From Promethearchaeota archaeon (GTDB taxonomy: Archaea; Asgardarchaeota; Lokiarchaeia; Sigyniarchaeales; SOKP01), in assembly GCA_016926735.1 (NCBI GenBank), contig JAFGOA010000197.1, positions 1 through 31,063 on the forward strand: 31,063 nucleotides of DNA, written 5' to 3'. This document shows positions 2,460 through 31,063 of the stretch, in pieces. A program made the position numbers and the translations under genes. The notes beneath the pieces were generated by a model. It was given only the letters and a program-made list of their open reading frames with translations. It was not told the origin of the DNA and made no database searches. Numbering within the stretch: the stretch's first letter is position 1; every line of letters starts with the position of its first letter.

Positions 2460-3956
2460 ATGTTGGAATTAAATAATATTGGAACACCCAAAGAATTTTG
2501 GCATTATTTTTTTGAAATTTGTAAAATACCTCGTTGTTCTGGAAATGAAGAGAGCATTAGAAATTTTATAGAGAATAATGCCCTAAATTTCAATTTTATT
2601 TTTAAGAGGGATAAAATAGGGAATTTGGTTGTTATAGTTCCTGCAAGTCAATCTGAAAAAAAACCAATTAAAATAGCTTTTCAATGTCATATGGATATGG
2701 TTTGTGAGAAGGATTTTAATAAAAAACATGATTTTTCTAAAGATCCAATTGATATAGAAATTATTAAAATCGATGAGAAATATTGGATAAAAGCAAAAGG
2801 AACAACTTTAGGTGCTGATAATGGTGTTGGAATTGCATATTGTTTAGCATTAATGGATATGATTTTTAACAAAAAATTAATAATTCATAAAATCTCTCTT
2901 GAATTTTTATTTACAGTTCAGGAAGAGAAAGGATTATCTGGTGCTTTTAATATTAGCGACGATTTCATCAATAGTGATTATTTAATCAATCTTGATTCAG
3001 AAGAAGATGATAAAATTACAATTGGGAGTGCTGGAGGTATAAATACAATTGGAAGTATAAATCTTAATATTAAAGAAAAGATTAGAGATGATATTAAACT
3101 AAAACCAATAAAATTATCGATTACAAATTTAAATGGAGGGCATTCTGGCATTGATATCAATAAGGGAAGAGGAAATGCATTAAAAATAATTTCTAAAATA
3201 TTATGGAAGATAAATAATAGATATGGTATATATCTTAATTCTATTTTAGGGGGAAATTTACCAAACGCTATCCCTAGAGAAGCAGAATCTATATTTTATG
3301 TAGAAGAAGAAAAAAGTAATGAAATCTTTTTATTTATAGACCAAATCATTTCTGAAATAGAATTAGGAATAAAAAATATTGAAAAAGATATGAAGATAAG
3401 ATATGAAGAACTAAAAAATTATAATATTGAAAACATATATCCAAAAACTACCAGTGATAAATTGTTAAATGTACTTTATGTAATACCAAATGGTCCTATC
3501 TCAATTCACCCTAAAAAACATGATTTAGTTTATACATCTACCAATTTAGCTTCAATTAAAATAAAAGGACAATATCTTAAAATTATAACTAGTCAAAGAA
3601 GTCTTCATCATGTTTCTAAAAAAATAATATCAGAAAAGATTCAAGCTTTATTCAATCTCGCTGATATAAATATTGATCTTATTGGAGAATATCCTGGTTG
3701 GATTCCAAATTTCGAATCAAAACTATTAAAAATAGTCGAAAAAAGTTATAAAGAACTTTATAAAAGGGATCCGATTATTCAAACAATTCATGCTGGTTTA
3801 GAAACAGGGATATTGAGTAATATTTTTCCTAATATAGATATTATTTCATTAGGACCCTTAATATTAGAGGGTCATTCTCCTAATGAGAGATTACAAATCA
3901 ATAGTGTTGAAAAAATTTGGAATTTAATAATTACTATATTAAATAATTTTAATTAA
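2460..3956 (+). CDS. pepD: Aminoacyl-histidine dipeptidase (peptidase D, M20 family)
   Basis: HMDMVCEK, TTLGADNGVG, EEKGL, NLDSEE, GGHSG, IHAGLETG and HSPNE motifs; start at 2460 or 2436. Confidence 0.92.
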   Translation: MLELNNIGTPKEFWHYFFEICKIPRCSGNEESIRNFIENNALNFNFIFKRDKIGNLVVIVPASQSEKKPIKIAFQCHMDMVCEKDFNKKHDFSKDPIDIEIIKIDEKYWIKAKGTTLGADNGVGIAYCLALMDMIFNKKLIIHKISLEFLFTVQEEKGLSGAFNISDDFINSDYLINLDSEEDDKITIGSAGGINTIGSINLNIKEKIRDDIKLKPIKLSITNLNGGHSGIDINKGRGNALKIISKILWKINNRYGIYLNSILGGNLPNAIPREAESIFYVEEEKSNEIFLFIDQIISEIELGIKNIEKDMKIRYEELKNYNIENIYPKTTSDKLLNVLYVIPNGPISIHPKKHDLVYTSTNLASIKIKGQYLKIITSQRSLHHVSKKIISEKIQALFNLADINIDLIGEYPGWIPNFESKLLKIVEKSYKELYKRDPIIQTIHAGLETGILSNIFPNIDIISLGPLILEGHSPNERLQINSVEKIWNLIITILNNFN

Positions 3957-14230: not shown

Positions 14231-14510
14231 AATTATTTTAGTTAAACGCAACTTCCTTTTTTAATTTTTTATCTAAATTATAAGAAAAGAATTATACTAA
14301 ATCTACTATATCTAAATCATATCATTTCAACTAATAATCAGAATCTTATAAAAATATTTAAAAATAAATAAAATAAAAAGCCTTATACTCTCTCTGGCTT
14401 GACTAGCATTTTTTTCTTTAATAAAATCATCTATTATTTTATAAATAAAAAGTCGCTTGTAACTAAACACTATTGAATGGTTAACTTTCTCAATACAGAA
14501 TTTTTTAATA

Positions 14511-15431
14511 TTAGGTGAATAAACCTATGAAATAACTTTTATAAAAAGAATAAAATAGAATCAATCCCATTAATAACCCTGCTATGATTATTCCTTTATC
14601 AAGAAAAGCTTTCTCAGTATTTCTAGCAATTTCAGGTTCTTCTGTAGTTAAATACATATATCTCATAAGAATATAAATCATTATTGGTATTGAGATGACA
14701 ATTATATAATCAGTAAATTCTGAAAAAGGCGTAAATTTATCAAAAATATAAAGACTATATGTAATAAAAATAGAAGCAGCAATAAGATTGTGAAAATTAT
14801 CTAACATTCTGAGATTATAAACATTATATACTTTCTTATGTTTAATAGCTTGTTCTTGTGATTCAAATGCTAATAAGTCTCCTTTTCTTTTTGCAATGAC
14901 CAGAAAAAGAGCAACCTCAAAAATAGATAATAATAACCAAGTAGATATTGACTGATGAATAATAAAACATCCAGCTAAGGTTCTCCATAGATATCCTGTT
15001 GATAAAAGGAGAATATCTATAAAGGCATAATTTTTTAATAAATTGCTATATAATTGCCCAGTTACCAAGATAGCAATTAAGAGTAATATAAAACTTAGGT
15101 CAGGAATGATAAAGATAAGACTTAGAATGATACAAATAATTAGTCCAAAGATTAAAACTATAGCAAATGTAATAGATAATTCTCCTGATGCAAGAGGTTT
15201 TTTATATAACTTTTCTTTATGTTCCTTATCATTTTCAACATCAATAATATCATTTATTATATAATTTATAGATGATGTTAAACACAATAAAATAAACCCT
15301 ATAATTAGAGGAAAATAATATTCTGTTTCAAAAAATGTTTGGCTAAAAAATAAACCTACAAATATTAGAACATTCTTATAGTATTGTCGTATTCTCAATA
15401 AATATAATATATTTTTTATAGTTTTTGTCAT
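14511..15431 (-). CDS. UbiA-family polyprenyl-phosphate phosphoribosyltransferase-like membrane protein
   Basis: LLRIRQYYKN, YIINDIIDVEND-x2-H, KPLASG, KRKGD motifs. Confidence 0.85.
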   Translation of the reverse strand: MTKTIKNILYLLRIRQYYKNVLIFVGLFFSQTFFETEYYFPLIIGFILLCLTSSINYIINDIIDVENDKEHKEKLYKKPLASGELSITFAIVLIFGLIICIILSLIFIIPDLSFILLLIAILVTGQLYSNLLKNYAFIDILLLSTGYLWRTLAGCFIIHQSISTWLLLSIFEVALFLVIAKRKGDLLAFESQEQAIKHKKVYNVYNLRMLDNFHNLIAASIFITYSLYIFDKFTPFSEFTDYIIVISIPIMIYILMRYMYLTTEEPEIARNTEKAFLDKGIIIAGLLMGLILFYSFYKSYFIGLFT

Positions 15432-29237: not shown

Positions 29238-29580
29238 TTAATTTTGTATATTATAAATTCGTGATATTTATTGGAAAAATATAAGATATTTAAAATTTTT
29301 AATCAAATTGAAACTATTATTTGTATTGAACATTTTTATTGATTATAAAAAATGAAAATTAAATATTAAGAAAAGAATCAAAAATTAAGTGTATTATTCT
29401 TGATTAAAGACCTTTCTGAATTAATTCTTAAAAATACAAAAATTTATTGATAAGATATATAATTATATCTATTTAAAATGATGATAAGTTAAAAGAAATG
29501 AAAAAAAAGTAGACTTACGCCTAAAATTTATTCACAATTTAAAGAATTTTAATTTTCAATATTTAGATAGTGGTTTTTTA

Positions 29581-29966
29581 CTACATTTTTTCTAAAATTA
29601 ATCTCATCAGATCCTCTCCACAAGCACCAACCATTTTACCTTTTTGAACTCTTATTTCTCCATCAATTTCAATATTTTTTTCTAATAAAACACCATCTTT
29701 GAAAAATAATAATGTAGGAATTGCACTAACATTAAATAAATTACCCAATGGTCTATTTTGATCAAGATCTACTTGAATTAATTTTATCAACCCTTCATCT
29801 CGGAGTTTATGTAAGATTGGTGCGATAAACTATCATGGTGTTTAAATTATTTTTTACAACACTTGCATGGTCCACACCAAACTGTATAAATATCAATTAC
29901 AAGTTTTCCTATTTTCATTTCTTCTGTTATTTCAATACCAACATCTTTTAGGTTATCTATATTCAT
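29581..29966 (-). CDS. trxA: Thioredoxin split into two exons (29864-29966 and 29581-29831); predicted spliced product 117 aa
   Basis: Exon 1 MNIDNLKDVGIEITEEMKIGKLVIDIYTVWCGPC, junction codon K, exon 2 FIAPILHKLRDEGLIKLIQVDLDQNRPLGNLFNVSAIPTLLFFKDG...; frames are joined by removing 32 nt. Confidence 0.9.
29832..29863 (-). other. 32-nt bulge-helix-bulge (BHB) intron in the thioredoxin mRNA
   Basis: 5' strand GGAC-CAUG-CAA-GUGUU; 3' strand AACAC-CAUG-AUA-GUUU; canonical cuts CA/A and AU/A give in-frame UGC-AAG-UUU. Confidence 0.85.
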
Positions 29967-30202
29967 CTGTTTTCAATTCTTTTTTAATTTTTTTCTTTAA
30001 ATCTTTTTTTTCTAAGATTTTGATATAATTAGTCTTTTTTATATTTTAATTAATCTATCAGCCTATTTATTTTTTTTATTTTATTATAAAATTCAACAAA
30101 AATTTATATATATAACAGTAAACCACTTTCAAAAAAGAATCAATTTTTTAATTATAGAATAGTTATTATATTTAAAAATTAAGAATTATAAAAATAAAAC
30201 TA

Positions 30203-30787: not shown

Positions 30788-31063
30788 GTGAACTACCACG
30801 TAAATGACGTGGCTTCCTACGAGTGCACAATCGCTTCTACTACGGATTGGTCTGTATATCGTAGAAAACCCTTCCATTGGTCTTGGAAGGATTCCTCGTT
30901 CACAGAGGATTGATGCGATAGGAAATCATACTTCTTTTCTTTTTTACATAATAGAAATTTAATCATAATATTGATTGCTGAGTTGAGATCTCGATCAATA
31001 TAATTTCCACAAGCGCACATAATAACGCGTTCATGAATAGAACGTTTCTTTTTTCTTCCACAT
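30788..31063 (-). mobile_element. Right end of an IS200/IS605-family element
   Basis: Minus-strand end GAAGCCACGTCATTTACGTGGTAGTTCAC: subterminal hairpin and TCAC terminus directly after the tnpB stop. Confidence 0.85.
30817..31063 (-). CDS. tnpB: TnpB (IS200/IS605 RNA-guided nuclease), C-terminal part; the ORF runs off the window edge
   Basis: Frame is open to the edge: CGRKKKRSIHERVIMCACGNYIDRDLNSAINI (zinc ribbon plus RuvC-III motif). Confidence 0.88.
   Translation of the reverse strand, partial: CGRKKKRSIHERVIMCACGNYIDRDLNSAINIMIKFLLCKKEKKYDFLSHQSSVNEESFQDQWKGFLRYTDQSVVEAIVHS

Follow-up and report, generated by a model that had tools for sequence, protein, structure and literature searches.

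A probable tRNA-type (bulge-helix-bulge) intron at the active site of a thioredoxin gene in an Asgard archaeon

How a thioredoxin can be made from a gene whose frame is broken at the active site is the question raised by this locus. The gene lies on the minus strand at 29966-29581 of the window, the whole 31,063-nt stretch of DNA that was analysed. The genome of the window (G000) is a fragmented, 99%-complete Promethearchaeota MAG of 238 contigs and 3.88 Mb. A 32-nt insert (29863-29832) breaks the frame right after WCGPC. Translated from the ATG at 29966, the exon-1 frame reads MNIDNLKDVGIEITEEMKIGKLVIDIYTVWCGPC, then ...KCCKK, and ends at a TAA inside the insert (29849-29847), giving an ORF of 39 aa. 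The exon-2 frame, read from 29829 downward, is FIAPILHKLRDEG...AIPTLLFFKDG...EKM, followed by a stop. When 29863-29832 are removed, A and AG join into a Lys codon, and 103 + 251 nt encode 117 aa and a stop. A first-pass annotation of this DNA had placed a 32-nt insert with an in-frame TAA at the WCGPC motif, with correct coordinates and sequence, and its view that the host is an Asgard archaeon agrees with the assignment of the MAG. It had also claimed that standard gene callers miss the intron, and the ORFs open to them are indeed 39 aa and 69 aa long, compared with the 117-aa protein. The three segments of the gene are as follows.

29864..29966, minus strand: exon 1, with the ATG (29966-29964), 34 codons to WCGPC, and the A (29864) of a split Lys codon
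29832..29863, minus strand: putative bulge-helix-bulge mini-intron, 32 nt, comprising nucleotide 3 of the 5' bulge, the whole inner hairpin, the intron strand (3') of the central helix and two 3'-bulge nucleotides; the same site is filled in 6 genomes and 4 distinct metagenome contigs
29581..29831, minus strand: exon 2, with AG finishing the Lys codon, 82 codons (FIAPILHK...AIPT...EKM) and the stop (29583-29581)

The two coding segments together match one thioredoxin profile. Exon 2 aligns with positions 36-87 of Pfam PF00085 at 31.2 bits (cut-off 23.5), and exon 1 aligns with positions 19-33 at 15 bits, which is under the cut-off alone but colinear. The match is colinear over the junction, and the residues left between the two exon matches are exactly the junction Lys and Phe. 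The translated sequence itself shows the CxxC active site (WCGPC) in exon 1 and the cis-Pro loop (AIPT) in exon 2. An uninterrupted thioredoxin paralogue is present in the same genome, at G000:C222, so the interrupted copy may be dispensable.

The 32-nt insert is very probably a bulge-helix-bulge (BHB, tRNA-type) intron of the thioredoxin pre-mRNA. The message must almost certainly be spliced, because an RNA shape of the EndA type is kept in the relatives by matching base changes. Unconstrained folding by RNAfold of 71 nt (window 29815-29885, minus strand) gives the strict hBHBh' motif in both the MFE and the centroid structure, with the following elements.

29870..29880, minus strand: outer helix, 5' strand, UUGGUGUG followed by GAC (Trp-Cys-Gly codons), 94-100% paired over the orthologues
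29866..29869, minus strand: central helix, 5' strand CAUG (exon), which pairs with 29837-29834 in the MFE fold and is 100% paired in six orthologues
29863..29865, minus strand: 5' bulge CAA of the MFE fold, with the predicted EndA cut at 29864|29863
29838..29862, minus strand: inner hairpin h', GUGUU/AACAC and UAAA/UUUA round an AT-rich loop, with double-sided changes at five pairs
29834..29837, minus strand: central helix, 3' strand CAUG (intron), in the MFE fold and the orthologues
29831..29833, minus strand: 3' bulge AUA of the MFE fold, with the predicted EndA cut at 29832|29831
29817..29830, minus strand: outer helix, 3' strand, GUU, an internal bulge UAU (3 nt) and CGCACCAA (Phe-Ile-Ala-Pro codons)

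The outer helix h consists of GAC/GUU, a 3-nt internal bulge, and then the 8-bp UUGGUGUG/CGCACCAA. The helix adjoining the 3' bulge is just 3 bp long (one of them G-U) before the internal bulge. Cuts after the second nucleotide of both bulges delete exactly the 32 nt whose loss restores the thioredoxin frame. The fold energy is not significant alone (z = -1.65; 15 of 200 shuffles are as stable), so the case for an intron rests on geometry, register and conservation and not on stability. A scan for the strict geometry (4 central pairs, at least 3 pairs per flanking helix, intron of 14-120 nt) over both strands of the whole genome gives 108,878 matches in ~8.3e8 position-length combinations, or ~1.3e-4 per specified position and length. 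Two registers only give the correct thioredoxin mRNA, and the strict motif falls on one of them; the other is shifted by one base, yields an identical mRNA owing to an A|A ambiguity, and has 2/4 central pairs. The canonical BHB fold described in the first-pass annotation is thus recovered with all its named helices and bulges in the unconstrained MFE structure, its outer helix refined by the 3-nt internal bulge. The annotation had further derived an intact 117-aa thioredoxin from the cut rule, and the frame is open and the profile colinear; the coincidence that it drew between structure-predicted cuts and frame-restoring deletion holds as well, at the chance rate per site and length given above.

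The Trp-Cys codons (UGGUGY; 29873-29880) are the reverse complement of the Ala-Pro codons (GCACCA; 29817-29824). Both strands of the outer BHB helix are therefore already provided by the thioredoxin gene, a possible reason why this site tolerates an intron. A self-splicing intron of group I or group II can be rejected: the insert has 32 nt, compared with a ribozyme core of hundreds of nucleotides, and an Rfam search of 29400-30200 gives no family match beyond a single chance-level one elsewhere in the searched segment. A second BHB-like candidate, 28 nt long (window 14494-14521, minus strand), is a false positive. It falls where a complete membrane-protein ORF of 306 aa, putatively UbiA-like, naturally ends, and it joins only onto a spurious 47-aa ORF.

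The tRNA introns of the genome serve as the positive control. Of the 42 tRNAs that ARAGORN calls in G000, 11 carry introns according to its calls. With the same geometry and cut rule as for thioredoxin, and one central mismatch allowed, the control returns the exact ARAGORN intron of tRNA-Thr(CGU) (G000:C69:75797-75893; first nucleotide 38, 24 nt, at the canonical 37/38). For tRNA-Ser(CGA) (G000:C133:6861-6960) it gives the same 19-nt length. The bulges are UAA and AUA in tRNA-Thr(CGU), compared with CAA and AUA in thioredoxin. Each tRNA intron has one mismatch in the central helix, U·U in tRNA-Thr and C·A in tRNA-Ser (3/4 pairs), and the thioredoxin motif with 4/4 central pairs is stricter than both of these parsed introns. 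The strict scan recovers none of the tRNA introns called by ARAGORN, and both matchable introns are recovered once one central mismatch is allowed. Strict BHB criteria thus undercount real EndA substrates.

Conservation was followed in Promethearchaeota (Loki-type Asgard) MAGs. An exon-2 protein match (E <= 1e-15) occurs in 116 of the 135 genomes of the family, and in most of these genomes the orthologue is uninterrupted, its open frame being 114-136 aa long. Inserts at the same position, which the first-pass annotation had suggested looking for in orthologues, are present in six genomes and four contigs, with a covarying BHB and variable loops. The genomes belong to three genera: G000-G003 are all four members of their genus, and G009 and G015 represent two others. 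The further distinct metagenome contigs are L105, L115, L127 and L132; L101, L130 and L134 are left out of this count as repeats of forms counted already. The MAG is fragmented (238 contigs), which could favour an assembly or sequencing artefact as the origin of the insert. That reading is the least probable of all those considered here and can be taken as excluded, because independent assemblies from different projects, as well as separate metagenome contigs, also carry the insert, with sequence differences.

The frame-restoring register is the best BHB register in 10/10 of the sequences with an insert at this site, hereafter site 2. The geometric scan finds 4/4 central pairs in seven of these ten inserts and 3/4 in the remaining three. 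The MFE fold is the same strict motif in 5/6 genome sequences, and that of G015 is relaxed. The central helix is CAUG/CAUG in five of the ten sequences. In G015 it is CUUG/CAAG, a double change (A-U to U-A) that combines a synonymous Pro-codon position with an intron base. Three sequences have CUUG/AAAG with one mismatch each, and one contig has GUGC/GCAU with the motif one base further along. The inner stem is variable in sequence yet paired, occurring as GUGUU/AACAC, AUGAU/AUCAU, CUGUU/AACAG, CAUUA/UAAUG and AGAU/AUCU. In an alignment of the six genomes, 92% of the cells are paired, compared with 28-43% when the partners are slid, and double-sided changes occur at six pairs; with six rows from related genomes, the shuffle statistics are indicative only. 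What the orthologous inserts keep is the geometry, including the two 3-nt bulges, and not any particular sequence.

The exons are maintained as well. The spliced frames of all four species of the genus are intact, with 117 codons. Pairwise dN/dS between these species is 0.09-0.25 in exon 1 and exon 2 separately, with dS from 0.09 to 1.2, which indicates that both exons are under purifying selection. The carriers of the insert have zero further frameshifts or stops. These observations bear on the possibility that a short insertion inactivated a thioredoxin copy and that the hairpin is incidental. The intact paralogue at G000:C222, the unexceptional fold energy and the end of the unspliced frame after 39 codons would all suit such a pseudogene. 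It is nevertheless very unlikely, and selection and covariation largely refute it: the exons stay open at dN/dS of 0.1-0.25 and dS up to 1.2 between species, the insert is retained in three genera with compensatory changes, and the coding sequence of the carriers is otherwise undamaged. The one-off insertion with decayed exons that the annotation had set against its own proposal is not what is seen, as the insert is shared and the exons are not decayed.

The length of the insert at site 2 ranges from 29 to 34 nt. It shifts the frame differently by lineage, and every form obeys the BHB cut rule, which argues against the idea that the insert is skipped without EndA, by translational bypassing of the T4 gene 60 type, by frameshifting, or by another RNase and ligase. 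A stop codon soon past the break and a hairpin in the gap do superficially resemble a bypass element. The codons needed for take-off and landing do not match, however; the break falls within the Lys codon (A | AG), and TTT, the first full codon of exon 2, is preceded by TAG. It is the BHB geometry with its two 3-nt bulges that is conserved, and not a particular sequence, and we give such skipping about the same slight probability as the pseudogene. A split gene is less probable still. In that case a 39-aa N-terminal fragment would associate, non-covalently, with a separately initiated C-terminal fragment. Fragments of thioredoxin cleaved close to this point are known to complement each other in vitro, and the break just past CxxC is near the classical fragment boundary. 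Against this, exon 2 offers no in-frame start until a TTG 13 codons in (29790). The ATG of the intron is out of frame and belongs to the conserved central helix, and the covariation of the BHB would be left unexplained.

Splicing of the thioredoxin pre-mRNA by the tRNA-type pathway would proceed in four steps. In the first, which rests on sequence and folds, the exon codons (Trp-Cys-Gly-Pro-Cys and Phe-Ile-Ala-Pro) and intron bases of the transcript would fold into h, the 4-bp H, h' and two 3-nt bulges. For the second and third steps we infer that a two-subunit EndA cleaves after the second nucleotide of each bulge (29864|29863 and 29832|29831) and that an RtcB-type ligase seals the exons as ...UGCA + AGUUU.... 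The intron would probably be released as a 32-nt circle, joining ...CACCATGAT to AGTGTTGT..., and the expected spliced junction is ...CCATGCA|AGTTTATCGC..., also written ...GGACCATGCA|AGTTTATCGCACC.... In the fourth step, again read from sequence and folds, the 117-aa thioredoxin (WCGPC-K-FIAPIL) would come only from the spliced mRNA, as the unspliced mRNA stops after 39 codons. A search for the spliced junction in 241 million metagenome records returned no match; this blank carries little weight, because the collection is assumed to be mostly DNA assemblies.

The genome encodes a splicing endonuclease. Two 200-aa ORFs carry both the N and C domains of tRNA_int_endo, and they represent two full-length EndA paralogues in G000. 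The first is closest to the catalytic subunits of crenarchaeal heterotetramers (3p1z_B, 3ajv_B and 2zyz_B; Aeropyrum, Pyrobaculum), and the second is divergent. Asgard archaea are reported to have a broad-specificity (alpha-beta)2 EndA (PMC5829648), and hetero-oligomeric EndA has been linked to pre-mRNA splicing (Yoshinari 2006, as cited in PMC5829648). The two paralogues in G000 fit both reports. RtcB was not found in the G000 assembly by PF01139 profile search or by tblastn, and it was found in 3/3 congeners and in 11/12 other relatives searched. In G003, which is near-identical to G000, the first 150 nt of the small contig that bears RtcB (L100:1-150) match the end of G000:C232 (5896-6045), and the other flank of RtcB there is a multi-copy gene family. 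Because the G003 contig starts with the sequence that ends C232, the absence is attributed to an assembly break, and RtcB of G000 most probably lies just beyond the end of C232.

Site 2 is one of three intron positions in the thioredoxin family. Site 1, found between D-x-Y-T-x and WCGPC, holds 30-32 nt with an in-frame stop or a frameshift. It is filled in G015 (L018:1740-1900), G050, six genomes of another genus, L122, L123, L126, L128 and L133, and the loci L086-L092 are also listed for it. Its inner stem is maintained, and compensatory differences distinguish the genera. By inspection, the frame-restoring register has a mismatched outer central pair (A·C or A·G), then CUG/CAG or CCG/CGG, and in sequence terms site 1 is a relaxed BHB. 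It is found inside a well-supported clade of intron-less genes, which implies repeated gain, loss or both. Site 3 lies inside PLGE|xFG and holds 25-35 nt in a strict BHB; the cut rule there gives G-E-K/R-F-G. The central helix of site 3 is GGUG/CACU in a 35-nt form (L132:488-528, L133:488-527 and L134:488-528) and GGCG/CGCU in a 25-nt form (L027; G013:C25:15415-15438), a compensatory change between the two. L132 carries both site 2 and site 3. G015 (L018; G015:C270, minus strand upstream of 1740) carries both site 1 and site 2, leaving a 16-nt WCGPC micro-exon, UGGUGCGGACCUUGUA. Its two motifs share exon bases, so splicing in G015 would need to be sequential. A tree of the exon-2 product (82 aa) is too poorly resolved to tell one ancient gain from several.

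One can ask whether splicing is used here and not merely tolerated. HAC1/XBP1 mRNA undergoes non-conventional splicing by Ire1 and a tRNA ligase/RTCB as a regulated switch. Thioredoxin synthesis could likewise be coupled to the state of EndA and RtcB as a stress or redox switch, a proposal that we consider improbable. Jointly with such a switch, and at the same low probability, the three filled sites round the active-site exon, including the 16-nt WCGPC micro-exon, would reflect selection and not neutral gain. The HAC1/XBP1 intron resembles the thioredoxin intron in being a short frame-changing mRNA intron without a spliceosome, with exons joined by a tRNA-type ligase (presumed for thioredoxin). 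It differs in its Ire1 endonuclease, its RNA motif and its regulated switch.

Other genes of G000 carry similar inserts. The nadE gene (G000:C143:3050-3079; L096:451-480, minus strand) has a 30-nt strict BHB insert with the central helix GGUG/CACU. Its match to Pfam NAD_synthase covers profile positions 2-143 upstream and 144-242 downstream, split exactly at the predicted cuts. A PurM/AIRS-family gene (G000:C62:12420-12448; L097:621-649, plus strand) has a 29-nt strict BHB insert, ACGU/ACGU, which joins frames of 166 and 303 codons. The downstream piece matches from AIRS profile position 43, and the upstream piece has no Pfam match; this gene is a probable third case of a BHB intron in G000. 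We also tried a genome-wide count of mRNA introns in G000 by filtering the strict BHB matches for those that merge ORFs. It yields 3,579 candidates, compared with 3,427-3,572 in shifted-cut controls, as bridges between adjacent genes swamp the signal. At high helix scores there are 54 candidates against 34-43 in the controls, a modest excess. The scan is no reliable census, though thioredoxin, nadE and the PurM/AIRS-family gene stand out.

In the searchable literature, the coding-sequence BHB introns are those of crenarchaeal cbf5 (Watanabe 2002; Yoshinari 2006; Yokobori 2009, PMC2738675). The thioredoxin intron is like them in being short, ORF-less and a BHB in protein-coding sequence, in its presumed removal by a hetero-oligomeric EndA and a ligase, and in its patchy lineage-specific distribution, which implies gain and loss. 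It is unlike them in its host gene, a thioredoxin cut at the active site, and in its phylum, Asgard/Promethearchaeota; the splicing of thioredoxin is deduced here from sequence. The thioredoxin family also has introns at three different positions, and a single gene carries at most two of them. Archaeal tRNA BHB introns have identical geometry and cut rule and similar bulges, and in both cases the exon supplies half of the motif. Unlike a tRNA, however, the thioredoxin host is an mRNA, and the half of the motif that its exons supply is made of codons on which selection acts at the protein level. Haloferax volcanii HVO_1309 has a BHB intron in its 5' UTR, and its authors name cbf5 as the only other mRNA example (PMC7714728). 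That intron, too, is an mRNA substrate of EndA, as supported by circRNA-seq and in vitro cleavage and as predicted for thioredoxin. In contrast to thioredoxin, it lies in an untranslated leader and leaves the reading frame intact, and the EndA of its host is homodimeric.

The earlier view that no BHB intron had been described in a thioredoxin or in an Asgard mRNA agrees with the searchable literature. The full texts covered report a coding-region BHB intron for cbf5 only; subscription journals lay outside this scope, and a prior report there is possible. By a term search of a 2026 preprint on Asgard tRNA introns, 'mRNA', 'cbf5' and 'thioredoxin' are absent and 'coding' is used solely for neighbouring genes. 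The mechanism is of a known kind, and the novelty lies in the host gene, its phylum and the multi-site pattern. A housekeeping redox protein is interrupted here at its catalytic motif, and the host belongs to the archaea most closely related to eukaryotes. The case gains support from the two other positions filled in this gene family and from the further interrupted genes of G000. To judge from these genes, these archaea seem to splice mRNAs routinely with their tRNA-splicing machinery, and gene callers systematically truncate such genes. The gain and loss of coding-sequence introns becomes open to study in a prokaryote, with implications for how interrupted genes could be tolerated before there was a spliceosome.

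Two further observations concern neighbouring subjects. In a congener, TGA replaces the first Cys codon of the active site (W-TGA-GPCK) in a thioredoxin paralogue (L094; G001:C174:4332-4571 and upstream). The gene is otherwise open, and it may be a selenocysteine thioredoxin. At the edge of the window, an open-ended ORF on the minus strand (30817-31062) reads ...CACGNYIDRDLNSAINI... and presumably resembles the C-terminus of a TnpB/IS605-OrfB-type protein.
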